Shown here piece after piece: positions 3,749 to 38,643 of a stretch of 49,820 bases of DNA. Under the pieces are notes generated by a model that ran no database searches, was not told the DNA's origin, and was given only the letters and a program-made list of their open reading frames with translations. Made by a program: the position numbers and the translations under genes. The DNA lies in contig JAZDFM010000029.1 of assembly GCA_043807825.1 (NCBI GenBank), forward strand, positions 1 to 49,820, in the 5' to 3' direction. Origin of the DNA: a bacterium (lineage in GTDB: Bacteria; Patescibacteriota; Patescibacteriia; Patescibacteriales; GWC2-42-12). Numbering within the stretch: position 1 is the stretch's first letter; the number at the start of each line of letters is the position of its first letter.

Positions 3749-5173
3749 ATGCAAAAAACAAATTATCAGGACATGGAAAAAAAATTAACGGCGCAAAGAA
3801 AAAACGCTTGGGAAGTTTGGGATGAGAAAACAGCCAAGCAAGCTTTTGTTTTTTCCGAAGAGTACAAGAAATTTTTGAATAAAAGCAAAACTGAGCGCGA
3901 AGCCGTGTCAGCGAGCGCGGTTTTGGCAGAGAAAGCCGGTTTTAAAAATATGGATTCCGTGAAATCGCTTAAAACCGGAGATAAAATTTACTCTGCCAAT
4001 CGCGGAAAAAGTTTGTTTTTGGCGAAAATCGGAAAAAAATCTATGAGCCATGGATTCAATATGATCATGCCGCATATTGATTCTCCTCATTTGGATTTAA
4101 AGGTTATGCCTTTGTATGAAGATGAAAATTTGGCGTTTTTAAAAACTCATTATTACGGCGGAATCAAAAAGTACCAATGGCCGACCATAGCTTTGGCTTT
4201 GCATGGGCAAGTTTATCTGGAAAATGGAAAAAAAATAGAAATAAATATCGGCGAGAAAGACAGCGATCCGATTTTCATGATCACCGACCTTCTGCCGCAC
4301 ATAGACCGGCACGGAGCGCCGGGCTCAAAAGTTGAATCAAAAGAAGTGCAAGGCGAAGACCTTAATTTGGTAGTCGGGTCAATACCGATCAAAGATGAAA
4401 AAATAAAAGAAAAAGTGAAATTGGCGGTTTTGGAGTATTTATGGAACGAATACGGAATCAAGGAAATTGATTTGGCCAGCGCCGAATTAAGAGCCGTGCC
4501 GTGCGAAAAAGCCAGGGATTTGGGTTTTGACAGAAGTTTGATCGCGGCTTTCGGACAGGATGATTTGGTCTGCGCTTACGCGGCTTTAATGGGAATTATA
4601 GATTCAAAAGCCGGCGAAAAAACGCAAATTTTGGCTATGGTTGACCGCGAAGAAATCGGCTCGGCCGGCAATACAAGCGCCAATTCGTATTTTTTGGAAA
4701 CTTTTGTTTCGGATTTGTTAAAATTGTCGGAAGGGAAAGGCGGCATGCATTATGTTTATAAAGTTTTTTCAAAAAGCCGTGCCATCAGCGCCGATGTCGC
4801 GGCCGGATTGGATCCCGATTACAAAGAAGTTTTTGACGCGCGAAACTCTTGCCGCTTGGGCTTTGGACTGGCCATAGAAAAATACACTGGCTTCGGCGGC
4901 AAATATTCGGCCAGCGAAGTTTCCGGAGAATTTATGCGCGAGCTGATGACATTGTGCGATAAAAATAAAAATATCGTTTATCAGCTTGCCGGAGGGCTTG
5001 GCAAAATTGACAAAGGCGGCGGCGGCACGATTGCCAAATATTTGGCCAATCGCAATATGGAAGCCATTGACGCCGGCGTCGCTTTATTCAATATGCACGC
5101 GCCATTGGAAATTTCTTCAAAAGCCGATATTTTCTGCGCTTATTCGGGGTATAAAATTTTTCTTGAAAATTAG
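3749..5173 (+). CDS. M18-family aminopeptidase (aspartyl aminopeptidase-like)
   Basis: 474 aa. The HIDSPHLDLK motif, the DREEIGS metal-ligand region and overall length match the M18 zinc aminopeptidase family. Confidence 0.75.
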   Translation: MQKTNYQDMEKKLTAQRKNAWEVWDEKTAKQAFVFSEEYKKFLNKSKTEREAVSASAVLAEKAGFKNMDSVKSLKTGDKIYSANRGKSLFLAKIGKKSMSHGFNMIMPHIDSPHLDLKVMPLYEDENLAFLKTHYYGGIKKYQWPTIALALHGQVYLENGKKIEINIGEKDSDPIFMITDLLPHIDRHGAPGSKVESKEVQGEDLNLVVGSIPIKDEKIKEKVKLAVLEYLWNEYGIKEIDLASAELRAVPCEKARDLGFDRSLIAAFGQDDLVCAYAALMGIIDSKAGEKTQILAMVDREEIGSAGNTSANSYFLETFVSDLLKLSEGKGGMHYVYKVFSKSRAISADVAAGLDPDYKEVFDARNSCRLGFGLAIEKYTGFGGKYSASEVSGEFMRELMTLCDKNKNIVYQLAGGLGKIDKGGGGTIAKYLANRNMEAIDAGVALFNMHAPLEISSKADIFCAYSGYKIFLEN

Positions 5174-5205: not shown

Positions 5206-6909
5206 ATGCCAAACAGCCAATCAATCAAAGATTTGTTCAGCGATGCGTCCGGGCAATCGCCAAATGATGAAAGCGCTTCGGCCAAATTCGCGGTCAAAGA
5301 AAAAAAATTGAAAATCAAAGAGCTTGAACGGCTCACCAAGCAGGCGGCGGATAATTCCGGATTGCCGTATGTTGATTTGGCCGGTTTTCCCATCAGCCCG
5401 GAAGCTTTGGTTTTGATTGACGAAGCCGAAGCCGCGGCGATTAAAACTCTGTGTTTTTTTTACGACGGCAAAAATATCCGTTTGGGAAGTTTGAATCCCG
5501 GCGAAGAGGATGTGAAAAAAATGTCTGATAAGTTGGCGGAAAAATATTTCGCGGATGTAAAAATTTATCTGATTACGGAGAATAGTTTTAATTACGGCAT
5601 GGAAATGTACAAAACAATACCCAAAGTCAGGGAAGTTGTGAGAGGGGTGAAAATCACCGAAGAAGAATTGAACAAATACGGGGAAAAATTTTCCAGCTTC
5701 AAAGATTTTCAGGAAGAAATAGTCAAAGCGCAGGTTACTGAAATAGTCTCCATGATTATGGCCGCGGCCGTAAAATCAAATTCATCGGACATACACATTG
5801 AAGCCGAAGAAAAATCAATAAAAGTGAGGTTCAGAATTGACGGAGTTTTGCATGATGTCGCGATAATAGATAAGTCGTCATGGGAAAAAATAATTTCGCG
5901 CATGAAGCTTTTAGCCGCCGTGAAAATAAATGTTACGGACAAGCCGCAAGACGGCAGGCTGTCTATTTATCTGAAAGACGAACGGGTTGATATTCGCTCT
6001 TCTTTTTTGCCGACCAATTTTGGCGAAAGCGTCGTGATGAGGCTTTTGCGGTCAAACGCCGTCGGATTGGAATTCAATGATTTAGGCATAAGGGGCAGGG
6101 CTTTTGAACAACTGAAACGGGAAGTGGAACGCCCGAACGGAATGATTATAACTACAGGTCCGACAGGCTCGGGGAAAACCACCACTCTTTACGCGATTTT
6201 AAGAAAATTGAACAATCCGGAAACAAAAATAATAACCATTGAAGATCCGATTGAATACCAGCTGGCGGGAGTCAACCAATCCCAAACAAGCAAAAATTAC
6301 ACTTTTGCCCAGGGTTTGCGGTCAATCGTGAGGCAAGATCCGGATATTGTCATGGTTGGAGAAATCCGCGACCTTGAAACATCGGAAATAGCGATTCAAG
6401 CGGCTTTGACCGGGCATTTGGTTTTATCAACCATCCATACCAATGACGCGTCCGGCACGGTGCCGAGATTTTTATCCATGGGCGCCAAGCCGTATTTATT
6501 GGCTCCGGCTTTGAACGCCATGATCGGGCAGAGGTTAGTCAGAAAAATCTGCGCGAAATGCAAGCGGGAATCCAAGCTTGACGATGAAACTTTAAAAAGG
6601 GCCAAAGATCTGCTGAACGGGCTTTTGGAAGAAGACAAGAAAAAAATTGATTTTGGCAATTTGAAATTTTATGCCGGCGGCGGCTGTGAAGCTTGCCAAG
6701 GCATCGGCTATAAAGGCCGCGTGGGAATTTATGAAGTTTTGACCATGAATCAGGAAATTGAAAAATTGATTTTAGGCGGGCAGGCGAGCGAATACGATAT
6801 GAGCGACAACGCTAAGAAAAACGGCATGATAACCATGGCGCAGGACGGCTTGCTGAAAGCGCTTGACGGCATAACCAGCGTTGAAGAAGTGTTCAGAGTG
6901 TCGGAGTAA
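5206..6909 (+). CDS. pilB: type II/IV secretion ATPase, PilB/GspE family
   Basis: N-terminal GSPII_E_N-like domain, Walker A GPTGSGKTTT, Asp box/Walker B DPDIVMVGEIRD, His box, and the tetracysteine motif CAKC...CEAC typical of PilB/GspE. Confidence 0.9.
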   Translation: MPNSQSIKDLFSDASGQSPNDESASAKFAVKEKKLKIKELERLTKQAADNSGLPYVDLAGFPISPEALVLIDEAEAAAIKTLCFFYDGKNIRLGSLNPGEEDVKKMSDKLAEKYFADVKIYLITENSFNYGMEMYKTIPKVREVVRGVKITEEELNKYGEKFSSFKDFQEEIVKAQVTEIVSMIMAAAVKSNSSDIHIEAEEKSIKVRFRIDGVLHDVAIIDKSSWEKIISRMKLLAAVKINVTDKPQDGRLSIYLKDERVDIRSSFLPTNFGESVVMRLLRSNAVGLEFNDLGIRGRAFEQLKREVERPNGMIITTGPTGSGKTTTLYAILRKLNNPETKIITIEDPIEYQLAGVNQSQTSKNYTFAQGLRSIVRQDPDIVMVGEIRDLETSEIAIQAALTGHLVLSTIHTNDASGTVPRFLSMGAKPYLLAPALNAMIGQRLVRKICAKCKRESKLDDETLKRAKDLLNGLLEEDKKKIDFGNLKFYAGGGCEACQGIGYKGRVGIYEVLTMNQEIEKLILGGQASEYDMSDNAKKNGMITMAQDGLLKALDGITSVEEVFRVSE

Positions 6910-6917
6910 AAATATTT

Positions 6918-7487
6918 ATGATAAATAAAAAATTCGTTCAAAAATTAAAGCGCGAATACGATGATTATGAAGGCGAGCGCCGCCAAATTATCAGCTTGTC
7001 AAACGCGGTTTTGCATGATTCCAAACGGGTGATTTTCGCTTTGCACCGCTTTGATGAAAATAAAGCAGGCGAATCTTTGGCCGTAATTGAAAAAATTTTA
7101 ACTGATCTTGAAAAAAAATTCGGGCATGCCAGATTATCGCAGGAAGGCTCTTACAAAGCCGGAGTTGAAGAATATGTTGAAGCTAAAATGCTGAATAAAT
7201 TGGTGAACGGAGAAAAGATTGATTTTATAAAAAATTTGGAAATAAATTGCGAAAGCTATTTGTCGGGAATCTGCGATTTGACCGGCGAATTGGTAAGGCA
7301 AGCTGTTAATATCGCGGCATCCGGAAAAACCGAACAAGTCGCGAAAATAAAAAATATCATTGATGAAATTATGTCCGAATTGGTGGAATTTGACATGACC
7401 GGATATTTGCGGACAAAATACGACCAGGCCAAAGGCAATGCCAGAAAAATAGAGCAAATCGGATATGAAATAAATTTAAGAAAATAG
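6918..7487 (+). CDS. translin family protein
   Basis: 189-aa all-helical protein. SYLSGICDLTGELVRQAV matches the YL.G..DL.GEL.R translin signature. The architecture resembles archaeal translin-like proteins. Confidence 0.65.
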   Translation: MINKKFVQKLKREYDDYEGERRQIISLSNAVLHDSKRVIFALHRFDENKAGESLAVIEKILTDLEKKFGHARLSQEGSYKAGVEEYVEAKMLNKLVNGEKIDFIKNLEINCESYLSGICDLTGELVRQAVNIAASGKTEQVAKIKNIIDEIMSELVEFDMTGYLRTKYDQAKGNARKIEQIGYEINLRK

Positions 7488-29300: not shown

Positions 29301-30323
29301 TCAATTGGAGAACCTGGAACTCAGCTTACAATGAGAACATTTCATACCGGAGGAGTGGCGGGGCAGGAAGATATTACGCAGGGACTTCCAAGGGTGGAAG
29401 AAATTTTTGAAGCTCGCCCTCCGAAAAAGAAAGCTTTCATAGCCGATGTGGCCGGAAAAGTTAAAATTGAAACCGCCCAAAGGACTATCGCCGGAGAATC
29501 CGGAGAAATAGTTGTTTCAAATCCGCAATCAAAAATTTTGAAAATATACTATAACGGTTCGGAAAGCGACGCGTATTCTTTCGCCGAAGCTATTCGCGAA
29601 GCCGGAGCCAAACAATCGGAGAAAGTCAAATTGCTGGTAAAAGAAGGCGATGAAGTTGTTAAAAACAGCGAGTTGTTTTCTGTCGGAGAAAAGGTCTTTA
29701 AATCCAAAAAAGCCGGTTTGGTAAAATTGGATGCCAAGTCGGTTAAAGTCGTAAGCGACGCGGAAAGAGTTAAAGAATATATTGTTCCCAAGGGTTTCGG
29801 AATATGGGTTAAAGACGGGGATGAAGTCAAAATCGGAGATCAATTGACCGAAGGATCTTTTGATTTGCACCAGTTGTACCAGCTTCGCGGAAAATTGGAA
29901 GCGCAAAAATATATTATCAAAGAAATCCAATATGTTTATTCGTCTCAAGGACAGCCGTTAAACGACAAGCATATAGAAATAATCGCCCGCCAGATGTTCG
30001 CGCGCGTTTATGTCAATAACGCGGGAGACACTGAATTGTTGCCCGGAGAAATAGTTGAAAAGGCCATTTTTGACAGGACTAACGAGGATTGCAAAAATAA
30101 AAATAAAAAAGCGGCCGAAGGCGATTTCTTGCTGTTGGGAATAACCAAATCTTCTTTGACCACAAACAGCTTTTTGTCGGCGGCGTCATTCCAGGAAACA
30201 GCCAGAGTTTTAATTGACGCGGCCGTAACCGGAAAAATTGATAATCTTGAAGGGTTGAAAGAAAATGTCATTATCGGCCGTCCGATTCCGGCAGGCACGG
30301 GCTATCGGCAGAAAGCGGATTAA
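26391..30323 (+). CDS. rpoC: DNA-directed RNA polymerase beta' subunit
   Basis: Zinc finger CYCGKYKK..YKGVICDKCGVEV, catalytic NADFDGDQM, 1310 aa. Confidence 0.97.
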   Translation: MLNPIKTTDFDAIKLKLASPEEILKWSHGEVIRPETINYRTQKPEKDGLFCERIFGPSKDWECYCGKYKKIRYKGVICDKCGVEVTRSLVRRERMGHIKLEAPVSHIWFLRGTSSKIGLILDLPMQAMEKVVYFASFVISDVNEDLRLATIEQIKQEYKSKRKSIENDWQKQVNEIKNKKGKLLSQGESESDIERMLSAEIESLEKIKHDKLDNLEQAFEQAQKELKDLKPLTIISESAYQNLSLKYGHIFTADIGASAIRKLLEKIDLDKTIEIVSKELVSAIDSKKDKMIRRLKLLKSLKANNLRPEWMVLNVVPVIPPDLRPMVPLDGGRFATSDLNDLYRRIINRNNRLKQLIELNAPEVICRNEKRMLQEAVDALIDNSIRHGKTVVASTGQKRMLKSLADSLKGKQGRFRQNLLGKRIDYSGRSVIVVNPNLNLDQCGLPKRMALELFKPFIISKLINKEIVHNVRSASRYIESGKDEVWDILEDIVKKSYVMLNRAPTLHRLGIQAFKPILIEGLAIQINPLVCTAFNADFDGDQMAVHVPLTEEAIAEARDIMLASHNLLKPATGDPVVAPNQDIVWGAFYITNIDDDYLNADEKKLKNFYSVDDAKLSYDMKNIKLQQKIRVIIDGEFVITTVGRVIFNEVLPVKLRFVNETVGKGKLKNLVKECLRFYGEQQTIDLLDDLKKVSFKYITKSGLSWGMDDIPHLYEKDEMISKASEQAEEIREQYRDGLLTDSERYSKTIELWTTVKEKVIEICKNHLPKNGPVYSMIESGARGSWAQLTQIIGMKGLVTSPSGDIIELPVKGNFKKGFSVLEYFISTHGVRKGLSDTALRTSNAGYLTRRLVDVSQDIIVVKDDCGDEEGLLLTKKESEEMGVNLIKRATGRFLAADLKNKNGKVLINAGELVTEELAEKIAKENIEEARIKSVLTCKVHRGICAKCYGYDLAYNKTVKIGTAVGIIAAQSIGEPGTQLTMRTFHTGGVAGQEDITQGLPRVEEIFEARPPKKKAFIADVAGKVKIETAQRTIAGESGEIVVSNPQSKILKIYYNGSESDAYSFAEAIREAGAKQSEKVKLLVKEGDEVVKNSELFSVGEKVFKSKKAGLVKLDAKSVKVVSDAERVKEYIVPKGFGIWVKDGDEVKIGDQLTEGSFDLHQLYQLRGKLEAQKYIIKEIQYVYSSQGQPLNDKHIEIIARQMFARVYVNNAGDTELLPGEIVEKAIFDRTNEDCKNKNKKAAEGDFLLLGITKSSLTTNSFLSAASFQETARVLIDAAVTGKIDNLEGLKENVIIGRPIPAGTGYRQKAD

Positions 30324-30356
30324 AAAATGTTTATTTGTTCTTTTAGATAAAAAATA

Positions 30357-30394
30357 AAAAAGGCATTGCGGTGAAAACCATGATGCCTTTTTTA
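30357..30394 (+). terminator. rho-independent terminator after rpoC
   Basis: aaaaaggcat...atgccttttt stem followed by a T run. Confidence 0.75.
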
Positions 30395-30409
30395 TTTGAA
30401 GAAAAATTT

Positions 30410-30452
30410 GACCCCTTTAATAAAGGGGTCGCCCGTTAGGGCGGGGGATTTT
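30410..30452. repeat. double-hairpin palindromic element (CCCCTTTAATAAAGGGG type), probable terminator for porB
   Basis: gacccctttaataaaggggtc is a perfect palindrome, followed by the cgcccgttagggcg hairpin and ggggatttt. A related copy sits inside porB at 31085-31118. Confidence 0.8.
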
Positions 30453-30476
30453 AATGTAGCGTTAAAAAGATGGCGG

Positions 30477-31403
30477 TTATAATCCGTATTTTTTTATATT
30501 TTCATCGGCTAATTTTTGGATGTAAGCTATTTGCGATTTGCCGCGTTCATCTTTGAATAAATGCTTAAAACGCCCTTGCGGTTTTAAATAATCTTCAACC
30601 GGCTGGCGTTTTTCCGGCAGTTTGATCACTTCTCCAAGCTGTCCGTTAACATATTCCACAGCCGGATAGATTCCGGTTAAAACCGCCAATTTGGCGATGT
30701 TTAATGTTTGATTTGGTTCAATTTTCCATCCGGGAACGCATGGCGACAAAATTTGGACATAAGACGGGCCTTGGGTTTCGGCGGCTTTTTTTATTTTTTT
30801 GATTATATCCAGCGGATAAGCGGCTGTGGTTTGCGCCGCGTATTTAAGGCCATGCGCCAAAGCTATGGCTATCATGTCTTTTTTCATGAAATGAGATCCT
30901 GCCGGCGTGGTTGTGGTATTGGCCGCCCAGGGAGTCGCCGCGCTTGCCTGCGCCCCGGTATTCATATAGCCTTCATTGTCATAGCAGATATAAATGATAT
31001 TTTCGCCCCTTTCCCACATTCCGCTGATAAGACCCAAGCCAATGTCAAACGAGCCTCCGTCTCCGCCTTGCGCGACAACTTTAATACCCCCTTTAATAAA
31101 GGGGGGCAGGGGGGATTTATTTTTTTCTTTGTGATCCAGAGCCGCTCTGATTCCCGAAGCTACGGCGGCCGCGTTTTCAAACAAAGAATGGATCCATGGC
31201 ATGCCCCAGCTTGATTCGGGATAAGGAGTGGTGACAACTTCCAAGCATCCGGTGGCATTGGCGATGATCGTATTCGGTCCGAGCGTGTCCGCTACTAATC
31301 GCGCCGCGATTATTTGAGCGCATCCGGCGCAACCGCGATGGCCCGGGGAGAGGAGCGAGGGCTTGGTGTTTGCGTTTTTTTTGGCTGTTATTGTATTGTT
31401 CAT
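30477..31403 (-). CDS. porB: pyruvate/2-oxoacid:ferredoxin oxidoreductase beta subunit (TPP-binding)
   Basis: GHRGCAGCAQ, GCLEV..TPYP, GGDGG..DIG and YDNE.YMNTG motifs of POR/OFOR beta subunits. Confidence 0.9.
   Translation of the reverse strand: MNNTITAKKNANTKPSLLSPGHRGCAGCAQIIAARLVADTLGPNTIIANATGCLEVVTTPYPESSWGMPWIHSLFENAAAVASGIRAALDHKEKNKSPLPPFIKGGIKVVAQGGDGGSFDIGLGLISGMWERGENIIYICYDNEGYMNTGAQASAATPWAANTTTTPAGSHFMKKDMIAIALAHGLKYAAQTTAAYPLDIIKKIKKAAETQGPSYVQILSPCVPGWKIEPNQTLNIAKLAVLTGIYPAVEYVNGQLGEVIKLPEKRQPVEDYLKPQGRFKHLFKDERGKSQIAYIQKLADENIKKYGL
31085..31118. repeat. palindromic element inserted in frame within porB
   Basis: ccccctttaataaaggggg followed by caggggggattt. It encodes KSPLPPFIKGG just before the conserved VVAQGGDGG block. 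Confidence 0.75.
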
Positions 31404-31427
31404 ATTTTATTAGAAATTAGAAATTTT

Positions 31428-31646
31428 TTAATTCGTTTCCATTACTTGCTTCTTAATGCCTCCGAGTCTGATTTTATCCGTTTGGCCGATAAATTTGGTC
31501 GCGTTCAGTATTTCAATTAAAACCGGTTTTTTGTTTTTTGACAAGTGAATTATGAAGTTGCCGAATTCCAAACAATGGTCAATCGGATCTTTTGACAATT
31601 CCCATGATATTAAGTTTGCATCAAGATCGTATCGCATATTACGCAT
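31428..31646 (-). CDS. DUF2283-like small protein (putative antitoxin partner)
   Basis: MRYDLDANLISWELS...VLIEILNATKF resembles the YD.e.D.ly / GiEil pattern of DUF2283. It overlaps the upstream DUF4258-like gene by 8 nt. Confidence 0.55.
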   Translation of the reverse strand: MRNMRYDLDANLISWELSKDPIDHCLEFGNFIIHLSKNKKPVLIEILNATKFIGQTDKIRLGGIKKQVMETN

Positions 31647-31860
31647 TTTTTATCGGAAAAAATGTGATTATTTTAAAAATATCCCCGTCTTTTTTATAAA
31701 TAACTTTTATATTTTCTTTTTGAGCGGCAAAAAGCCCGTCTTTTTTTCCTGTTTTATCGGGCGCGCCTATCGCGTCTTCAATTTGTTCGCGCGTAAAAAA
31801 TATTTTATGCTTATTTAAGATATCAAATTTTGATTCCGCGTATTTAGTAAAGTAAAGCAT
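31639..31860 (-). CDS. DUF4258-like small protein (putative toxin)
   Basis: 73 aa. The FTKYAESKFDILNKHKIFFTREQIEDAI layout resembles DUF4258, which commonly pairs with DUF2283. Confidence 0.5.
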   Translation of the reverse strand: MLYFTKYAESKFDILNKHKIFFTREQIEDAIGAPDKTGKKDGLFAAQKENIKVIYKKDGDIFKIITFFPIKNA

Positions 31861-31862
31861 AT

Positions 31863-32102
31863 TTATGAGTTATAAGTATGATCATTTTTTCGCTCTATGG
31901 TTAAAATTGATATTTTTTCATCGCCGAGGCGATAAATAATTCTGATTTTTCCTTTACGGACGCGGTAAATATCCTGTCGGCCTTTTAGTTTTTTTATATC
32001 AAGATTATCAAAATCACGGCAATTGATTTTAATTAGAATCGTTTTAATAATTTCTTTTTCTTCGGCCGCCATTTTTTTCAGCGTTTTGGCGATTTTATCC
32101 AT
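31863..32102 (-). CDS. RelE/ParE-family type II toxin
   Basis: 79 aa. KKLKGRQDIYRVRKGKIRIIYRL....ISILTIERKNDHTY matches the RelE/ParE core pattern. It starts 3 nt after the Phd-like gene. Confidence 0.7.
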   Translation of the reverse strand: MDKIAKTLKKMAAEEKEIIKTILIKINCRDFDNLDIKKLKGRQDIYRVRKGKIRIIYRLGDEKISILTIERKNDHTYNS

Positions 32103-32105
32103 AGG

Positions 32106-32318
32106 TTATAAACGCGATAATATTTCTTTAATATCAACGCCGCCTTTTTTTATTTTGGTGAAGTCAATAATTTCCTCCCATTGTTCTTCCTGAAGAGGAG
32201 ATATGCGAAACAAAGGCTTTGATTGCTTAAAAACTATAAATGATTCGCCATTGGCGATGCGTTTAGCGTAATCAATCATATTTTCCCTTAAAGTTTTTAA
32301 ACCGACGGTATTTTCCAT
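32106..32318 (-). CDS. Phd/YefM-family antitoxin
   Basis: 70 aa. GLKTLRENMIDYAKRIANGESFIVFKQSKPLFRI is the Phd/YefM N-terminal fold pattern. Confidence 0.7.
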   Translation of the reverse strand: MENTVGLKTLRENMIDYAKRIANGESFIVFKQSKPLFRISPLQEEQWEEIIDFTKIKKGGVDIKEILSRL

Positions 32319-32324
32319 AATTTT

Positions 32325-32377
32325 AAAGTTAATTTTTAAATTAACTTTAGTTTAACAAAAAATTAACTTATTGTCAA
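32325..32377 (-). promoter_or_regulatory. promoter (TTGACA-17-TAAACT) with 24-bp palindromic operator for the Phd/RelE pair
   Basis: On the minus strand, ttgaca lies at 32372-32377 and taaact at 32349-32354. The palindrome aaagttaatttttaaattaacttt (32325-32348, 11-bp arms) sits between the -10 box and the ATG. An extra half-site aattaactt is at 32361-32369. Confidence 0.65.
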
Positions 32378-32390
32378 TTGAAAAATATTT

Positions 32391-33473
32391 TTAAAAGTTG
32401 CACCATTTGCTGTTAGCTTCCCACGGGCCCCAACCCGAACCGCCGGCTAACCTTTTGGCGTTGCTGACGCTTATAGCCGGATTGGAGGCGGCGGCCACGC
32501 ATTTATTGTATAAAACAACATCGGTTACAGAGCAACTCGGACTGCTATTGACCCATGCTTTGTTGCCGAAAGCGTCAGGGCAATTCAGTTTGTTGTTGTT
32601 TTCATCTATCAAATAATTCGCCGACAAATTAAATTGGAACAAACCCCAAACAGCGTAATAATCGCCATTGCCGCATTTGGTTAAAGGATTTTTTGCATCG
32701 GCTTTGCCGGAACTTTCCGCCATACAGATGGCTGACGCTTCTCCGGCCTTATCGCCGAAAGCGGACATTTTGAATATGGAGCATTCGCCGGTTTCCGTCG
32801 GCTTGCATTGTCTGGAAAATTCTTCCGTGTTTTTCGGTTCCGGAATTTGACCGGCTATCTGAATATTGATCGGATTGAAATTAACTAAAGCAGGATTAAC
32901 TTGATAAAGAATAGTATAAGAGCATAAAGCTATGATTAGTCCGGTTAGGCTCGCGCCGATCCACGCTTTGGCTTCGCCGATCATGGTGGCGCTGCCGCCG
33001 GCGATTATCCAGAGAACGCCACCGACCATCAAAACCACGGCCGCTAAAATGCCGACTATGCCGATGGCGTATTTGTAAATTCCGGCGATGTATTCGCCGA
33101 TCCATGGGTAACTGCAGACTTTTTTGCCGTTTTGCTCCACGCATTTTATGGCGCTGCCTTTGGTTAAAATAAGGCCGGGTATGTCTATTTGAAATTGAAA
33201 ATCAGGAATTTTTATTTCCGGCATAGTGTCGTTGACTTCGTGCGGTATAGTGGTTTCCACAACGCAAGAATAAGTTGCTTTTCCGCCGATAGTGCTTCCG
33301 CCGGTTTGAATGCATAAATAGCCGCTGTCGCATGTTTTGTCGCCAAGGCCGGAGCAAGGTTTTCCTATTATCATTTCCGCCGAAACTGAAGGTGAAAATG
33401 AAAAAAATAATAACAGCAAGCTGAAAAATTGCGCGACAATAACTATGTATGAAATTTTATTTTTTGGATCCAT
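32391..33473 (-). CDS. exported protein: N-terminal Cys-containing region, TrbC/VirB2-like pilin hairpin, C-terminal lysozyme-like domain
   Basis: Signal peptide ending SVSA. Two-TM core IYKYAIGIVGILAAVVLMVGGVLWIIAGG...GEAKAWIGASLTGLIIALCSY fits the type IV secretion pilin pattern. The C-terminal ICMAESSG...VWGLFQFN...GWGPWEANSKWC with 8 Cys resembles the lysozyme/SLT fold. Confidence 0.7.
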   Translation of the reverse strand: MDPKNKISYIVIVAQFFSLLLLFFSFSPSVSAEMIIGKPCSGLGDKTCDSGYLCIQTGGSTIGGKATYSCVVETTIPHEVNDTMPEIKIPDFQFQIDIPGLILTKGSAIKCVEQNGKKVCSYPWIGEYIAGIYKYAIGIVGILAAVVLMVGGVLWIIAGGSATMIGEAKAWIGASLTGLIIALCSYTILYQVNPALVNFNPINIQIAGQIPEPKNTEEFSRQCKPTETGECSIFKMSAFGDKAGEASAICMAESSGKADAKNPLTKCGNGDYYAVWGLFQFNLSANYLIDENNNKLNCPDAFGNKAWVNSSPSCSVTDVVLYNKCVAAASNPAISVSNAKRLAGGSGWGPWEANSKWCNF

Positions 33474-33476
33474 AAA

Positions 33477-34328
33477 TTAGTTGCACATTGCGCCTGATTG
33501 TGTTGATTCGCAATCTCCGTTGCAACATTCATAATTGGCGAATAGCGGGTCAGAGCATAAAAAATTGGTATTTTTGCATGGTTCGCATTTTTTATTTTTG
33601 CAATATCCTTTTCCTCCTTTTGGGGTATTGCAAATTTCATGGTCGTTTTCGCTATTGCAATCCGATGGCAATTCTTCATTGCAAACATATACTCCGTTAA
33701 CGCTTTCGCAATTTCCTCCGCAACATTCTGGATTTGATGAGCATTTGAAACCTTGTTTCAAGCATTGTTGGCACTCTCCATTTTGGCAATATCCGCTTTG
33801 GTTATTAACGACGCAATAATTTCCGTCTTGGCTGCAATCATAATAAATATTCGCGCTGTTTGTTTTTTTATCTGCAACTTGTTGAATCGCCGTTGTTTTT
33901 AAATCTACCAGTGCCGGATTGACCGTGGCTAAAATCACATAAGAGCATAAAGCGATAAGCAAACCGGCGAACGAAGCGCCTATCCACGCCTTGGCTTCGC
34001 CGATGGCGGCGGAATTTCCTCCGGCTATAATCCACATTACGCCGCCGACCATCAAAACCACGGCCGCCAGAATGCCGACTATGCCGATGGCGTATTTGTA
34101 AATAGCTCTGATGTAGTTTGCTATGTTGCCTGTGCTTTTGTCGCTTGAATCAAATTTATAATCTCCGACCTGAACTTGCGGAATGAATTCAATGCCATCA
34201 TCAGCGGCTTGTCCGGCGTTCGGCGCGAAAGTTAAAAATAATAAGCAAGAAAGCTGAAAAATAAAAATCGCCAGGAAAAGAATTGTTAAAATTTTCGGAA
34301 AATGTTTTAGCATAAATTTTTGGATCAT
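33477..34328 (-). CDS. exported protein: TrbC/VirB2-like pilin hairpin with C-terminal tandem 10-Cys knottin-like modules
   Basis: Signal peptide ending AGQA. Same two-TM core as the downstream paralog (55 of 66 residues identical). The C-terminal 119 aa hold 20 Cys in two modules with conserved spacing. Confidence 0.7.
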   Translation of the reverse strand: MIQKFMLKHFPKILTILFLAIFIFQLSCLLFLTFAPNAGQAADDGIEFIPQVQVGDYKFDSSDKSTGNIANYIRAIYKYAIGIVGILAAVVLMVGGVMWIIAGGNSAAIGEAKAWIGASFAGLLIALCSYVILATVNPALVDLKTTAIQQVADKKTNSANIYYDCSQDGNYCVVNNQSGYCQNGECQQCLKQGFKCSSNPECCGGNCESVNGVYVCNEELPSDCNSENDHEICNTPKGGKGYCKNKKCEPCKNTNFLCSDPLFANYECCNGDCESTQSGAMCN

Positions 34329-34359
34329 AGATCAAGCCCGGGATGACTGGAGCAGGGGA

Positions 34360-34632
34360 TTATAAATGCCGGTAGATATCGTGATTGCCAATTGAGATAA
34401 AAAGGATGTCGCCGTTTTTCTGTCGTTCAAAAATAATTCTATAGTTGGCGTTGATGGAAATTGACCAAATACATTTAAATTCACCGCGCAGTTCATGCAG
34501 GCGCAGGGAAGGATGAAGCGGGTTTGCTTTAAAAATTTTTTCTTTTTTTATAGCAATGTCTAAAAGTTCTTTAGGCAATTTTTTTAAATTTTTAATAAAA
34601 CTTGTTGAATATTCAATCTTTTTAACAATCAT
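34360..34632 (-). CDS. RelE/ParE-family type II toxin (mRNA interferase-like)
   Basis: 90 aa. NPLHPSLRLHELRGEFKCIWSISINANYRIIFER...ILFISIGNHDIY matches the RelE/YafQ-type pattern. It overlaps the antitoxin gene by 4 nt. Confidence 0.75.
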   Translation of the reverse strand: MIVKKIEYSTSFIKNLKKLPKELLDIAIKKEKIFKANPLHPSLRLHELRGEFKCIWSISINANYRIIFERQKNGDILFISIGNHDIYRHL

Positions 34633-34859
34633 AAAAGATAGGCCAAGGAGTCGGCTTTTATTGTTTTTCCGTTTTTATATTCTTCCCGAGACTCTATGAT
34701 AGCTGCCATTAATTCTTTGTCAGATATAGTATTATTATTGTCCGCTTCAAAAAGATATTTAAAATATTCGCTGATTGAAGCAAAGCCGCTGTGTTTTATA
34801 TGGTTTTTTAATTTTTTTACCATGTTTTCCGGCAGAGAAACGCTTATGACTTGTCTCAT
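34629..34859 (-). CDS. ribbon-helix-helix antitoxin
   Basis: 76 aa. The N-terminal VISVSLPENMVKKLKNHIK...SISEYFKYLF strand-helix-helix layout fits an RHH fold. It lies upstream of and is translationally coupled to the RelE-like gene. Confidence 0.65.
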   Translation of the reverse strand: MRQVISVSLPENMVKKLKNHIKHSGFASISEYFKYLFEADNNNTISDKELMAAIIESREEYKNGKTIKADSLAYLL

Positions 34860-34888
34860 AAATATATTGGTTAATTATTATGTTATAA

Positions 34889-34917
34889 TTGTATTACAAT
34901 CGTAATACAATGTCAAG
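34889..34917 (-). promoter_or_regulatory. promoter (TTGACA-17-TACAAT) with palindromic operator for the RHH/RelE pair
   Basis: On the minus strand, ttgaca lies at 34912-34917 and tacaat at 34889-34894. The inverted repeat gtattac/gtaatac (34892-34898 and 34903-34909) overlaps the -10 hexamer and the spacer. Confidence 0.7.
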
Positions 34918-34945
34918 ATTCAATCTATTCTTGCCGCTGGCTTCT

Positions 34946-34970
34946 GGATTCCCGCCTGCCAGGAATGACG
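34946..34970 (+). repeat. REP-like palindromic unit, GGATTCC...GGAATGACG variant
   Basis: ggattcccgcctgccaggaatgacg has the same frame (GATTxC loop GxAATGAC) as the GAGATTGC family and sits immediately beside a family member. Confidence 0.6.
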
Positions 34971-34977
34971 AAACCGT

Positions 34978-35019
34978 GAGATTGCTTCGTCGGACGAGTA
35001 CGGCCTCCTCGCAATGACA
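34978..35019 (+). repeat. REP-like unit, GAGATTGC...GCAATGACA family
   Basis: gagattgcttcgtcggacgagtacggcctcctcgcaatgaca ends 2 nt from the porA stop codon. Confidence 0.8.
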
Positions 35020-35021
35020 AA

Positions 35022-36200
35022 CTATTTGCCTACAAACTGTGCTCTATCGTTTTTTTTATTTGCTTTTTTAATTATTTTTTTAATCATCTCAACCGTAATA
35101 TCCCTGCCACCAAGGCCGACAATGAAACTGGAGACATTGGCATTTGTCGCGCCTTGAACAACGGCTTTGATGTCGGAAGCCAGCGGTCCGATTTGCCCCA
35201 GCGAAATTGATTTGTCTATGACAGCGATGTTTTTCGCGCGTTTTATTATTTTTAAAATTTGTTCTGATGGAAAAGGTCGGAAGCATTTAATTTTCAAGAT
35301 GCCGATGTCCGAGCCGGCGGCGGCGTGTTTTATGGTTCCGCAAACCGATCCCATGGCGATGACTATGGTGTCAGGGTTTTTAGGGCCTATATATTCCATT
35401 AAACCATTTTCTATTCTTAGTTTTAATTGGTTTAATTTTGAATTTTGAATTTTGAATTTTGAATTGAATGCCGTAAACTCTTTGTTGATGGCGTTAAGGC
35501 TATTCTCCAAATCTTCGTGCAGTTCTTGCCGGATTTCCATATAATGGGCCGGAGTAGCCAAAGCTCCCAAGGTGGCGGGGTTGGCCGGATCCAAATATTG
35601 GCCGGGTTCGGGATTGTAATCAGGAAGATATTTTTTAATCTGTTCGGCTTCGGGTATGATAACCGGCTCGTAAGTGTGCGTCATGATGAATCCGTCAACA
35701 TTGACCATAACCGGAATTTTTAATTTTTCGGCGATTTTGAAAGCCATAATATGTTGGTTGACGGCTTCCTGATGGTTTTCCGCGAATAGCAAAATCCATC
35801 CCGCGTCCCTGATCGCCATCACATCCTGCTGATCGTTCCAGATATTTATTGGCGCTGATACGGCTCTGTTGGCGCATGTCATGACAATCGGCAATCTCAT
35901 TCCCGCGATATTGTAAATCACTTCGGCCATAAGCAAAAGCCCTTGCGAGCTTGTGGCGCTGTAAGCGCGCGCTCCGGCGGCGCTGGCTCCGGCCACGATA
36001 GAAGCGGCCGCGAATTCGCTCTCGGCCCTCACATATTCATAATCAGCCTGTCCGTCGGCTTTGAATTTTGCCAGGTCTTCAACAATATGGGTTTGAGGAG
36101 TGATTGGGTAGGCGGAAATCACGGCGGGGCGGATATTTTTAACTGTTAGGGCGATAGCGCGAGAGCCTTCAAGTATTTGTTGTTTATTTTTATTATTCAT
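35022..36200 (-). CDS. porA: pyruvate/2-oxoacid:ferredoxin oxidoreductase alpha subunit
   Basis: GSRAIALTVKN...AYPITPQT...SE.AA....GAS.AG.R..TATSSQG pattern. The ATG at 36200 (MNNKNKQQILEG) is preferred. The ORF-track extension to 36446 runs through a REP element and overlaps porD. Confidence 0.9.
   Translation of the reverse strand: MNNKNKQQILEGSRAIALTVKNIRPAVISAYPITPQTHIVEDLAKFKADGQADYEYVRAESEFAAASIVAGASAAGARAYSATSSQGLLLMAEVIYNIAGMRLPIVMTCANRAVSAPINIWNDQQDVMAIRDAGWILLFAENHQEAVNQHIMAFKIAEKLKIPVMVNVDGFIMTHTYEPVIIPEAEQIKKYLPDYNPEPGQYLDPANPATLGALATPAHYMEIRQELHEDLENSLNAINKEFTAFNSKFKIQNSKLNQLKLRIENGLMEYIGPKNPDTIVIAMGSVCGTIKHAAAGSDIGILKIKCFRPFPSEQILKIIKRAKNIAVIDKSISLGQIGPLASDIKAVVQGATNANVSSFIVGLGGRDITVEMIKKIIKKANKKNDRAQFVGK
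35434..35461. repeat. heptanucleotide repeat (aattttg x4 plus a partial copy) inside porA
   Basis: Four exact tandem copies on the plus strand encode FNSKFKIQNSKL in an apparently expanded inter-domain linker. Confidence 0.85.
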
Positions 36201-36214
36201 ATAAAATTGTTCGC

Positions 36215-36269
36215 GAGATTGCTTCGTCGTCCCCCACCAAAATTTGGTGGGGGACTTCTCGCAATGACA
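36215..36269 (+). repeat. REP-like unit, GAGATTGC...GCAATGACA family, with nested perfect hairpin
   Basis: gagattgcttcgtcgt + cccccaccaaaatttggtggggg + acttctcgcaatgaca, in the 76-nt porD-porA spacer. Confidence 0.85.
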
Positions 36270-36276
36270 TGAGGAA

Positions 36277-36525
36277 TTATTTTTCTTCAGGTTCCATTTC
36301 AATGGCTTTAAACGGGCATTCAGCGGCGCATAATCCGCAGCCTTTGCAATATGACAGATCGCCATCATAATATTTTTCGCCGGTTTGATGAATCGCGTTT
36401 TCAGGGCAGATTCTTTGGCAAATTCCGCAAGCCGAACATTTGTCATGCAAAAATTTCGGTTTAATTGATCTCCATGAACCTGTTTTATTTATTATTGAGG
36501 TAGATGGTTTAACGGCAATTTTCAT
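36277..36525 (-). CDS. porD: oxidoreductase delta subunit, 2x[4Fe-4S] ferredoxin
   Basis: CSACGICQRICP and CKGCGLCAAECP cluster motifs, 82 aa. Confidence 0.9.
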   Translation of the reverse strand: MKIAVKPSTSIINKTGSWRSIKPKFLHDKCSACGICQRICPENAIHQTGEKYYDGDLSYCKGCGLCAAECPFKAIEMEPEEK

Positions 36526-36534
36526 AAATAAAAT

Positions 36535-37074
36535 TTAATTTTGATACGCCATTTCTATGGCTTTGATATTTTTATCAATCAAATCTTGATTTCCGGAAAA
36601 TTTTTCTTCAATGGCCTGTTTAAGAGATTCAAGGCTGACTATGCCGGTTATTTTCGCGAAAGCTCCCAAAATAACGGTGTTAACTATATTTTTCCCGATT
36701 ATTTCCAAAGCTATTTTGGACGCGTCAATGATATGAATATTTGATGCCGGCAATTTGATTTTCAATTCCCGTTTGTCTTTGGCCGTATTGATGATAGCGA
36801 TGGTTTTTTTACCCGCGCCCTTGGCCACGTCAATGCTTTCAAGCAAACTGGCGTCCTGAATAATCAAAATATCCGGATTTTTAATTTGTTCTCTGGTTAT
36901 TATCGGATTATCGTCCACGCGCGCGAACGATTCCACGGGCGCGCCAGTCCTTTCCACGCCGAAAGATGGAAAAGCTTGCGCCTGCCGGCCGCTTTTAAAC
37001 GCGGCTATGGCTATCAATTCGGCGGCGGTTACAACTCCTTGGCCTCCTCGGCCGTGAATTCTTATTTGTATCAT
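36535..37074 (-). CDS. porG: oxidoreductase gamma subunit
   Basis: IRIHGRGGQGVVTAAELIA...FPSFG.ERTGAP is the POR/OFOR gamma signature. Confidence 0.9.
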   Translation of the reverse strand: MIQIRIHGRGGQGVVTAAELIAIAAFKSGRQAQAFPSFGVERTGAPVESFARVDDNPIITREQIKNPDILIIQDASLLESIDVAKGAGKKTIAIINTAKDKRELKIKLPASNIHIIDASKIALEIIGKNIVNTVILGAFAKITGIVSLESLKQAIEEKFSGNQDLIDKNIKAIEMAYQN

Positions 37075-37082
37075 AAAAATTT

Positions 37083-37760
37083 TTATTTTTTCAAATCCTC
37101 AATTATTTTAACAAACACATCATACGGTATGTCTCCCGATATTTTATAGCCGTTGATAAAGTAAGTCGGCGTGCCAGCGTTTCCGAATGATTGCCCGTCA
37201 GACAAGTCTTTTTGAATTTGCGGAAGATATTTTTTTTGATCAAGGCAATTTTTAAATTTCGCGGCATCGGCGCCGATTTGTCCGGCTAAAGACATAAGAT
37301 GATCGGCGGTGTTCACGCCTTGGTTTTGGAACAGCTTGTCATGCATTTGCCAAAATAACCCTTGTTCGCCGGCGCATCGCCCGGCTAACGCCAAATCGGT
37401 TGAATATTCTTGCATTATCGGGTAATCGCGCCAAATGAATTGGACTTCGTTTTTGTATTTTAAGCTTATTTCCCTGGAAGTTTTAAATGATTGCGCGCAC
37501 GCGGAGCACGCGAAATCTCCGAATTCAACTATTGTTATTTTCGCGTTTTCGGAGCCTGTCCAATAATGTTCTCCTTTGGAAGCATTATATGTTTGTCCGC
37601 TTAATTTTGTTTCGGATTCTTTCAGCTTAATTTGGGCGTTTTTTATTTCACTTATGAAATAAAAAATACTGGCGGAGACAAAAAATAAAATTATGGCGGA
37701 AAAAATAATCGCCAAAACGCCTTTCCATGTTTTAATCCAAGGTTTTTTTTCGTTTTCCAT
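37083..37760 (-). CDS. membrane-anchored DsbA-family thiol:disulfide oxidoreductase
   Basis: N-terminal TM anchor. VEFGDFACSACAQ carries a CxxC motif, and GTPTYFING is a cis-Pro-type motif of the DsbA fold. Confidence 0.8.
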   Translation of the reverse strand: MENEKKPWIKTWKGVLAIIFSAIILFFVSASIFYFISEIKNAQIKLKESETKLSGQTYNASKGEHYWTGSENAKITIVEFGDFACSACAQSFKTSREISLKYKNEVQFIWRDYPIMQEYSTDLALAGRCAGEQGLFWQMHDKLFQNQGVNTADHLMSLAGQIGADAAKFKNCLDQKKYLPQIQKDLSDGQSFGNAGTPTYFINGYKISGDIPYDVFVKIIEDLKK

Positions 37761-37808
37761 TGAAAAATTTAGAAATTAGTTTTAATATGAATATTATAGC
37801 ATTTATTT

Positions 37809-37946
37809 ATGGATAAACAAAATTTTGACAATTTGGATGTTGAGCTTGAAAAGCTGCTGAACGAGCGCGAAAAAAGAAAGAGAAAGCGCATGAAAGTGAG
37901 CGGAGCGGCGGTAAAAAACTTGCAAAAAATCATTGTTGCAAAATAA
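37809..37946 (+). CDS. possible small protein (45 aa), not in the ORF track
   Basis: ATG to TAA ORF encoding MDKQNFDNLDVELEKLLNEREKRKRKRMKVSGAAVKNLQKIIVAK, in an otherwise empty 260-nt gap. No RBS or family support. Confidence 0.25.
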   Translation: MDKQNFDNLDVELEKLLNEREKRKRKRMKVSGAAVKNLQKIIVAK

Positions 37947-37963
37947 TCGCAAAGATGTATAAT
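37936..37963 (+). promoter_or_regulatory. promoter for pdaD (TTGCAA-16-TATAAT)
   Basis: ttgcaa at 37936-37941 and tataat at 37958-37963. Confidence 0.55.
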
Positions 37964-38022
37964 AGATTTGTCGCTTTTAAGCGATTATTATTTTAATAAT
38001 TTAAACGGAAAAATCAAAAAGT

Positions 38023-38643
38023 ATGTTCACACCGAAAAAAATGTTTCTCACAAAAGGAGTCGGAGTCCATAAGGACAAATTGGCTTCGTTTGAGCTGGCT
38101 CTCAGAAATGCCGGAATCCAGCATTGCAATTTGGTGACTGTTTCAAGCATCCTGCCGCCTCATTGCCAAATGGTGTCAAAAGAAAAAGGAGAAAAGATGC
38201 TTTATCCGGGGCAGATTGTTTTTTGCGTTTTGGCAAGAAGCGAGACTAATGAGCCCAATCGTTTGGTTTCCGCCTCTATCGGCGTTGCCAGGCCAAGCCA
38301 TGAAGATGATTACGGCTATCTGTCCGAACATCACGCTTTCGGGGAAGTGGCCAAAAAAACCGGCGATTACGCCGAAGATTTGGCGGCTACCATGCTTGCC
38401 ACCACCAAAGGCATTGAATTTGATTCTGATAAAGCGTGGGATGAAAGAAAGCAGATTTATATTTCCAGCGGGCATATTTTCCGCACGATGAATATCTGCC
38501 AATCGGCCGAAGGCAATAAGCATGGCTTATGGACGACTGTCATAGCTGTCGCTGTTTTTTGCGAATACAGTTTCCATAAAGATGTCGTCTGCCCGATAAT
38601 CAAAGATGAATTTGAAAGTTATAACGGCAAGATAAAAAAATAA
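38023..38643 (+). CDS. pdaD: pyruvoyl-dependent arginine decarboxylase
   Basis: FLTKGVGVH...[20 protein letters not shown] includes the Ser-Ser self-cleavage site typical of PvlArgDC. Confidence 0.85.

Follow-up and report, generated by a model that had tools for sequence, protein, structure and literature searches.

An old gene core, later toxin-antitoxin cassettes and REP-like palindromes probably form a layered mosaic between porA and porB in a clade of Patescibacteria

How did eight further genes come to lie between the alpha and beta subunit genes of a four-subunit pyruvate/2-oxoacid:ferredoxin oxidoreductase (POR), and are they a recent arrival or an old part of the operon? The question is raised by a stretch of 49,820 nucleotides from a member of the Patescibacteria (GCA_043807825.1, contig JAZDFM010000029.1, positions 1-49,820; hereafter the window), in which the block studied here, 31404-35021, separates porA from porB. 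An earlier note on this DNA had described the block as an accessory insertion. We put the probability at about 0.8 that the 3.6 kb between porA and porB are a layered mosaic, composed of an old clade-wide core, variable toxin-antitoxin (TA) cassettes and, as the youngest layer, palindromes resembling repetitive extragenic palindromic (REP) elements. The core consists of pil1, pil2, orf73 and a DUF2283-like gene, amounts to about 2.4 of the 3.6 kb and was present in every close relative examined (about 95 contigs); the cassettes and REP elements make up about 1.2 kb.

According to this reading, a block coding for one or two VirB2-like membrane-anchored surface proteins, Orf73 and the DUF2283-like protein would have become established between the alpha and beta genes of a dsbA-porGDAB operon in the ancestor of a clade of ultra-small Patescibacteria (Parcubacteria/Falkowbacteria-like), and would since have been inherited vertically under purifying selection. 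Small, promoter-led type II TA cassettes would have been added to this core, an RHH/RelE pair at the junction of porA and pil1 and a Phd-like/ParE-like pair at that of pil2 and orf73, and REP-like palindromes would have landed in the spacers last.

The interrupted por operon

The open reading frame (ORF) map shows 13 co-oriented minus-strand genes with short spacers, running from 37760 to 30477 in the order dsbA-like, porG, porD, porA, eight further ORFs, porB; all features of this array are given here on the minus strand. The earlier note had reported this order, the co-orientation of all eight inserted ORFs with the operon and a distance of 24 nt from the stop codon of the DUF2283-like gene to the porB ATG. 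All of this was borne out, coordinates included, and the note's family assignments for the inserted ORFs proved essentially right when compared with Pfam, orthologue matches and a structural model of Orf73.

All four POR subunits are recognizable by Pfam, and each subunit gene is single-copy within the window. The gamma subunit gene porG (36535-37074; POR, 3e-43) is followed by porD (36277-36525; Fer4 and Fer4_7), coding for the delta subunit, a ferredoxin with two [4Fe-4S] clusters, and by the alpha subunit gene porA (35022-36200; POR_N, 5e-74, and PFOR_II, 1e-24). The porA stop codon is at 35022-35024 and its true start is the ATG at 36200 (MNNKNKQQ...), where orthologue alignments begin; the listed ORF (35022-36446) is 82 codons overlong and overlaps porD, because a REP-like palindrome fills the porD-porA spacer. 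The beta subunit gene porB (30477-31403; TPP_enzyme_C) is intact and codes for a full-length match to a solved pyruvate:ferredoxin oxidoreductase (PFOR) beta subunit (9bt4_C, residues 8-295, E 2e-92), the alignment showing the thiamine pyrophosphate-binding GDG motif and the cysteine motifs CAGC, TGCLEV and PC. The dsbA-like gene (37083-37760; Thioredoxin_4, 4e-28; DSBA, 2e-15) is the first of the array and ends 8 nt upstream of porG; by transmembrane and cysteine analysis, its thioredoxin-fold product is anchored in the membrane at the N-terminus and has a CxxC motif (residues 85-88). The gene is syntenic with por in relatives, outgroups with adjacent porA and porB included.

Four-subunit porGDAB operons such as those of the Thermococcales (PMC4058850; solved PFOR 9bt4) have the same subunits, domains and gamma-delta-alpha-beta order. 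The window departs from them in that the typical adjacent alpha/beta organization is absent, eight genes parting alpha from beta over 3.6 kb (1.8-3.9 kb in the clade), and in that a dsbA-like gene leads the array.

Conservation of the core and origin of the split

Relatives were collected by a porB-based scan with one genome per species, followed by tblastn of all por and island proteins, and by a scan of metagenome contigs with an orf73 profile, chosen against porB-query bias. Close relatives with enough sequence always show porA, one or two pil genes, orf73, the DUF2283-like gene and porB in that order. In 13 independent close relatives, tblastn and ORF maps gave porA-pil-pil-[variable]-orf73-[variable]-DUF2283-porB. 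The orf73-anchored scan placed the DUF2283-like gene and porB within 245-792 nt in 44/44 loci with at least 1.5 kb of downstream sequence, and porA upstream in 20 of the 21 loci with at least 4 kb of upstream sequence, with a pil gene between in 19. The distance from porA to porB across the clade is 1.77-3.94 kb. Contigs retrieved by PorB or Orf73 protein matches repeat this order and also the wider synteny, with arginine decarboxylase and LigD_N genes followed by dsbA-por...porB and then by convergent rpoC-rpoB. The closest porB sequences bear source names of Patescibacteria, Parcubacteria or Falkowbacteria.

Outside the clade, the gap between porA and porB is 10-270 nt, also in members of the candidate phyla radiation (CPR) with a dsbA-porGDAB array (loci L011, L012, L059 and L077). 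The exceptions, in which no porA lies upstream of porB, are the CPR loci L017 and L026 and the short contig L027. A neighbour-joining tree of PorB gathers all split loci in one clade, sister to L011 and L012, which have 141 and 15 nt, respectively, between porA and porB; in more distant loci the gap is 10-267 nt. The conserved order, the single porB clade and the unsplit sister lineages together argue for one old insertion followed by vertical inheritance, and on these sequence comparisons porA-porB adjacency is the ancestral state. L017 and L026, labelled Peribacteria/Gracilibacteria, carry a solo porB with no porA within 10 kb (L026 5078-10909), adjoined in L026 by dnaE and an orotidine monophosphate-decarboxylase-like gene; the split clade is thus not alone in having a broken-up por operon.

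Relative to L092, a locus with about 86-93% nucleotide identity, the ratio of nonsynonymous to synonymous substitution (dN/dS) is 0-0.16 for all eight inserted genes, like that of the por genes, so the inserted genes are functional and under purifying selection rather than debris. Core proteins in relatives are 55-81% identical and PorB 63-85%, the core evolving about as slowly as the por genes.

These results divide the earlier note's reading. Its statement that non-POR genes lie between porA and porB in the window, whereas the two are adjacent elsewhere, was confirmed in nearly all loci outside the clade. The accessory character it ascribed to the insertion stands for the two TA cassettes and falls for the core, which is kept in all close relatives with enough sequence. 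The synteny comparison it proposed gave, within the clade, the outcome that it had named as a refutation, one gene order throughout, although sister lineages have adjacent porA and porB. The compositional profile gives 31-36% guanine plus cytosine (GC) for the small genes and 39-48% for the por genes, which is no proof of foreignness; nor can GC content date the insertions, because AT-richness extends to orf73 and the DUF2283-like gene, both of them old residents.

No recombinase, integrase or transposase gene lies in 31404-35021. The sole tyrosine recombinase gene of the window is 30 kb away at 117-950; it codes for a Phage_integrase domain with a SAM-like domain, is possibly of the Xer type, and no link to the cassettes was found. 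Likewise, no convincing direct or inverted repeats flank the 3.6-kb block as a whole. An assembly artefact was rejected as a source of the arrangement, the identical order recurring in dozens of independent assemblies (NCBI, JGI, ENA and Logan).

The VirB2-like core genes

The two largest genes of the core, pil1 (33477-34328) and pil2 (32391-33473), code for predicted exported proteins built around a VirB2-like two-helix T4SS_pilin hairpin. In Pil1, a signal/anchor and the hairpin precede a C-terminal domain that contains 20 cysteines; Pil2 has a signal, a cysteine-containing N-terminal domain, the hairpin and a lysozyme-like (SLT_3) C-terminus. Their T4SS_pilin (PF18895) scores of 23.5 and 22.1 bits fall below the gathering score of 26.6, which orthologues exceed (up to 30.1), and their hydrophobic segments lie where a signal and a hairpin are expected. 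The hairpin regions of the two are 69% identical, and the remaining sequence is unrelated. In relatives, the orthologues sit between porA and porB. Throughout the relatives Pil2 keeps its VirB2-like hairpin but not its C-terminal domain (window 32391-33473; L003 190-1035; L006 652-1620; L088 8270-9490), which is a lysozyme-like SLT or SLT_3 domain in some (SLT in L088 and L090) and a VanY/M15 peptidase in others.

VirB2-like genes, often arrayed, are common in Patescibacteria (PMC12102498). The pil genes resemble such PF18895 arrays in being tandem, divergent and predicted to code for exported, membrane-anchored proteins. They differ in lying inside a central-metabolism operon with no virB4 nearby and in each carrying a large extra domain, Cys-rich in one and lysozyme-like or VanY-like in the other. 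No virB4 was present among the window ORFs scanned, whose sole secretion ATPase gene (5206-6909) is of the T2SSE/PilB type and lies 25-30 kb off.

The toxin-antitoxin cassettes

The RHH/RelE cassette (34355-34917) was delimited by Pfam, a promoter scan and comparison of its edges. The antitoxin gene (34629-34859; RHH_1, 21.5 bits against a cutoff of 20.5) overlaps by 4 nt the gene for a RelE/YafQ/HigB-like toxin (34360-34632; HigB-like_toxin, 29.4 against 27; YafQ, 29.9 against 30; also a ParE match). Upstream is a predicted promoter, TTGACA-17-TACAAT (34916-34888), with 11 of 12 consensus matches, overlapped by a predicted palindromic operator with 10-nt arms (34911-34888); a consensus promoter with an operator on the porA-proximal side, as the earlier note had proposed, is thus supported by these motifs. 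Wherever the upstream region of another RHH/RelE cassette is covered, promoter and palindrome are conserved. The operator is palindromic in the window, L092 (4161-4184) and L101/L124 with differing half-sites (TGTATTAC..GTAATACA versus TGTAATAC..GTATTACA), and its central 4 nt are inverted between the window (34888-34911) and L092. Homology to eight other RHH/RelE cassettes starts at about 34917, the -35 TTGACA, whatever the upstream flank. The pair precedes pil1 in the window, L092 and L118 and stands directly upstream of orf73 in L101, L124/L134, L127, L138, L141 and L153; among genome contigs it was found only in the window, the metagenome loci carrying it before pil1 or orf73.

The Phd-like/ParE-like cassette (31863-32377) was recognized from the promoter scan, Pfam matches of orthologues and edge comparison. 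Gene order, sizes and promoter/operator fit a TA pair, and domain support is weak: the Phd-like antitoxin (32106-32318) has no Pfam match, its orthologues matching Phd/YefM weakly (E 0.004 and 0.035), and the ParE-like toxin (31863-32102) reaches 18.1 bits with ParE_toxin, below the cutoff of 23. A sequence search of the antitoxin against solved structures gave a marginal match to VapB46 (E 0.06) and otherwise noise. The predicted promoter, TTGACA-17-TAAACT with a TG extension (32377-32349), has beside it operator-like AAGTTAAT/ATTAACTT repeats (32326-32369). This promoter/operator block is kept in 14 loci with four unrelated upstream contexts, and homology starts exactly at the TTGACA. The pair is found in a subset of relatives (L003, L004 and others), with decayed remnants elsewhere. 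Between the window and L092 (31639-32318 versus 6705-7387), the Phd-like, ParE-like and orf73 genes are near-identical (dS 0-0.08) amid flanks at 0.2-0.8, which suggests a recent recombination tract.

Since homology starts at the cassette's own TTGACA in all comparisons, both TA pairs are discrete promoter-led cassettes. Neither is present in L081, whose porB is 85% identical and among the two closest by porB; there the spacers from porA through porB are 7-12 nt. The cassettes share with type II TA modules of the RelE/ParE superfamily with RHH or Phd antitoxins (PMC11980606) the order antitoxin-then-toxin, overlapping or near-abutting genes, and a predicted sigma-70-like promoter of their own with a palindromic operator. 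Unlike those modules, they are discrete units whose left edge coincides sharply with the -35 box; from genome to genome they are found at one or another junction of a single operon, and in relatives some are flanked by direct repeats, up to 79 nt long, of the 5' end of orf73.

An insertion hotspot at the 5' end of orf73

These repeats belong to a wider pattern in relatives. About 32 loci have one or two truncated copies of the orf73 5' end upstream of an intact orf73, the copies breaking after codon 8/9, 11, about 20 or 26. In L101, orf73 codons 1-26 are repeated directly on both sides of an RHH/RelE cassette, over 79 nt and at 96% identity (335-413 and 988-1066), and similar repeats of 50-63 nt occur in L127 (826-888 and 1594-1656), L138 and L117/L119/L122. 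L119 has orf73 5' copies at 4110-4166, 4913-4990 and 6001-6213, and nested footprints exist among the loci. The cargo between remnant and intact orf73 comprises both TA cassettes, an AAA_14-DUF4143 ATPase, a 143-aa secreted protein, a nucleotidyltransferase and HEPN-like gene pair (read by eye) and a DinJ-like gene with a 126-aa gene. Counted over all types of cargo seen, about nine independent units are known, every one of them co-oriented with por. No recombinase was seen at the hotspot loci, and no orf73 5' remnant was seen in the window itself. Just upstream of orf73, L145 (1260-1382), L149 (731-853), L108 (541-663) and L090 (3972-4112) have a chimeric ORF of about 40 codons in which orf73 codons 1-8 are fused to the last 25 residues of the Phd-like antitoxin; it is probably the deletion footprint of an earlier cassette.

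Three routes of cassette entry fit these data. Excised circles could have come in by Campbell-type recombination, DNA that had been taken up could have been joined by homology-facilitated illegitimate recombination, or an unlinked recombinase could have acted. A tentative extension, to which we give something like one chance in four, holds that the first 26 codons of orf73 serve as a capture site for promoter-bearing, recombinase-less cassettes, building within a central-metabolism operon an integron-like array of TA and defence-type genes, whose cassettes are kept because their outward promoters feed porB. Each insertion would then regenerate an intact orf73 and leave a truncated copy behind, and the orf73-DUF2283-porB unit would be at once the landing pad and the reason why the array cannot be lost. 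Integron cassette arrays and defence/TA hotspots are alike in their varied small, mostly TA-like cargo at one site and in one orientation and in their old footprints. The por site is unlike them in several respects: neither an integrase nor anything resembling attC was seen beside the array, each cassette arrives with a promoter of its own, what is repeated is a gene's 5' end, and the whole stands within a housekeeping operon.

orf73 and the DUF2283-like gene

The orf73 product (73 aa; 31639-31860) was modelled by AlphaFold2 (pLDDT 90.9) as a beta-alpha-alpha-beta4 protein of the RelE/BECR fold, and its top Foldseek matches in the PDB are RelE, YafQ, YoeB and ParE (TM 0.55-0.67, probability about 1.0). 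It has no Pfam match, and DUF4258 (PF14076) was detected in only 1 of 12 orthologues (E 0.099). A profile search of 1.84 billion representatives returned 119 relatives; 2 of the 10 remote, longer relatives scanned touch DUF4258 weakly (E 1e-4 to 2e-3), and Orf73 is without a C-terminal tail and a loop found in DUF4258-like relatives. We take Orf73 to be a short form distantly related to DUF4258. Its partner gene (69 aa; 31428-31637) likely starts at the ATG at 31637, the listed ORF starting at 31646; the window protein matches DUF2283 (PF10049) weakly, at 16.8 bits against a cutoff of 23, and its orthologues match in 16 of 16 cases (best E 1.2e-5). The DUF2283-like gene is directly upstream of porB in all relatives. 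The subfamily is small, the searches having returned 184 out of 5.8 billion sequences and, as given above, 119 out of 1.84 billion representatives.

Between orf73 and the DUF2283-like gene, several relatives carry a 23S_rRNA_IVP gene, coding for a four-helix bundle (Pfam-confirmed in L006 1923-2300 and L008 9467-9718; judged by sequence similarity in L135 2942-3334, L143 3689-4066 and L162 6238-6624), and orf73 and its partner therefore need not abut.

Ordinary chromosomal toxin-antitoxin pairs are patchy in distribution. The orf73/DUF2283 pair is vertically conserved and locked to porB, which also sets it apart from known DUF4258 and DUF2283 systems. DUF4258 is an untested BECR family (PMC11980606; bioRxiv 10.64898/2026.08.28.747851) whose members come with small partner proteins, and DUF2283 includes regulators of the FseA/QseM type; the pair resembles these in its small size, RelE-like beta-alpha-alpha-beta4 topology and paired small gene. 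Orf73 differs in scoring below the Pfam threshold of DUF4258 and in missing the relatives' C-terminal tail. The strict retention of the pair beside porB may be simple trapping by operon structure.

REP-like palindromes

Two REP-like palindromes follow porA (34980-35016 and 34946-34968; 0 expected by chance), and another (CATTGCGAG...GAAGCAATC) lies in the porD-porA spacer (36217-36266). The roughly 89%-identical L092 is without both REP-like blocks, being about 90 nt shorter after porA and about 70 nt shorter between porD and porA. The palindromes after porA are thus real, as the earlier note held, and its use of them as the edge of an island fails: since they are absent in L092, the bearer of all eight genes, the REP-like palindromes are later independent insertions. 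Of the 173 loci fetched, 26 contain members of the family, for the most part in spacers of the por region. An Rfam scan of 30300-38100 found no RNA family for the palindromes and a sub-threshold small-RNA match at the terminator only. Like REP elements and miniature inverted-repeat transposable elements, they are short, GC-rich, repeated and intergenic, occur on both strands and are present or absent between close relatives; in contrast to these, they have no Rfam match here, and the family appears common to this Patescibacteria clade.

Probable transcription through the block

The array from dsbA to porB would be transcribed as one unit from upstream of dsbA. Transcription of the unit, which is convergent with rpoC, probably stops at a terminator-like hairpin after porB (30410-30430; 9 pairs and a T run), the sole strong minus-strand terminator; the REP hairpins are unlikely to be terminators, because they have no T run. 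In cassette-free relatives, spacers of 3-12 nt would leave read-through as the only way to reach porB. Two cassette promoters, presumably autoregulated, may add transcription in the present genome; they are the best-scoring minus-strand sites in the region (34916-34888 and 32377-32349). The second reads straight into orf73-DUF2283-porB and is therefore a candidate internal promoter. A porB promoter in the 24-nt spacer was rejected, the only match (31431-31404) ending at the ATG, where it cannot serve porB. The earlier note had expected porB to depend on read-through or on an internal promoter that it did not see; porB probably does depend on transcription through the block, and the promoter kept in 14 loci is a candidate for the one the note missed. 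Perhaps only co-oriented cargo is tolerated because other cargo would cut off porB.

Alternative readings

The reading closest to the earlier note, a recent strain-level island in which eight unrelated genes were inserted as one unit with the REP palindromes as its edge, would account for the accessory-looking content of toxin-antitoxin pairs and exported proteins, for the low GC of the small genes and for the REP-like elements on the porA-proximal side. It is nonetheless highly improbable. Absence from close relatives at the same site, the hallmark of a genomic island, is not what the comparison found: the four core genes occupy the identical place in all of them, their proteins are about as conserved as PorB, L092 has all eight genes and no REP elements, and the block has neither integrase, transposase nor flanking repeat. 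We give still less credence to the idea that porB belongs to a different 2-oxoacid oxidoreductase, so that the operon is not truly split; it has no positive support, although some other CPR lineages carry a solo porB far from porA. A beta-like gene from another enzyme was rejected given the single copy of each subunit gene and the full-length match to a four-subunit PFOR beta subunit. Moreover, PorA and PorB identities track one another from relative to relative (e.g. 69/66, 76/78 and 79/76%), and sister lineages have the identical dsbA-porGDAB gene set with porA and porB adjacent.

A different proposal addresses why the core is retained, and regards orf73/DUF2283 as a domesticated TA-derived module acting on POR expression or assembly; a RelE-fold RNase processing the long por transcript or a DUF2283 protein binding PorB could be examples. 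In its favour are the strict orf73-DUF2283-porB linkage in all 44 loci, the retention of DUF2283-porB in L005 although the upstream region has been replaced, the small size of the subfamily and its confinement to the por context, dN/dS values far under 1 for both genes, the loss of the C-terminal tail and loop from Orf73, which in the structural model suggests altered activity, and the fact that DUF2283 domains elsewhere are protein-binding regulators (FseA/QseM; PMC4755241). On the other hand, the linkage is explicable by vertical inheritance and the need of porB for upstream transcription, the two genes can be parted by REP elements or a 23S_rRNA_IVP gene, and POR runs without the pair in sister lineages. 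On balance, we consider domestication unlikely, and less so than either of the two preceding alternatives.

The layered mosaic, which we prefer, has its own weak points. The tree was drawn by neighbour joining from a single protein and is rough, and the loci are mostly metagenome contigs, some of which may be near-duplicates of one population. Read-through, promoter activity and the terminator are all deduced from sequence, and the promoter scan used an E. coli-type consensus that may not fully apply to Patescibacteria. The arrangement can also be rearranged: L005 (8657-10942) keeps DUF2283-porB and has no porA within 10 kb upstream, where an alpha/beta-hydrolase-like gene (called by eye) is found instead, and L159 (4551-7527) has the order porA-orf73-pil1-pil2. 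Finally, the layered account alone gives no reason why the core is retained.

Neighbouring genes

The array is flanked on one side by FemAB, Mur ligase, rpoB and rpoC genes and on the other by LigD_N, LeuRS, KsgA and SufS/SufE genes. A pyruvoyl-dependent arginine decarboxylase gene (38023-38643) adjoins dsbA in the window; it is missing in L092 (1265-1473) and replaced in L088 (2877-4250) by a pyridoxal phosphate-dependent Orn/Arg decarboxylase gene, making the site beside dsbA a second variable spot at the opposite end of the por array.

Implications

The components of this locus are individually known: four-subunit POR, VirB2-like genes, RelE/ParE TA modules, DUF4258, DUF2283 regulators and REP-like repeats. 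Their combination, a clade-wide stable interruption between alpha and beta with a por-linked RelE-fold/DUF2283 pair and an operon-embedded cassette hotspot, was not found described. A search of the literature on Patescibacteria/CPR POR with toxin-antitoxin or pilin genes did not return the arrangement, its coverage being incomplete and no proof of novelty. Knowledge of POR itself is unchanged by these findings. For annotation, they mean that an 'orphan'-looking porB is normal in the split clade and that the VirB2-like genes found there belong to no type IV secretion system locus. For TA biology, they present sharp-edged, promoter-led cassettes and direct-repeat footprints without a recombinase, as well as a RelE-fold/DUF2283 pair that behaves as housekeeping genes. 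For operon evolution, they suggest that inserts are screened for orientation by selection for read-through. In these reduced-genome Patescibacteria, a core energy-metabolism operon would thus have carried foreign genes stably over long evolution and later become a landing site for TA cassettes.

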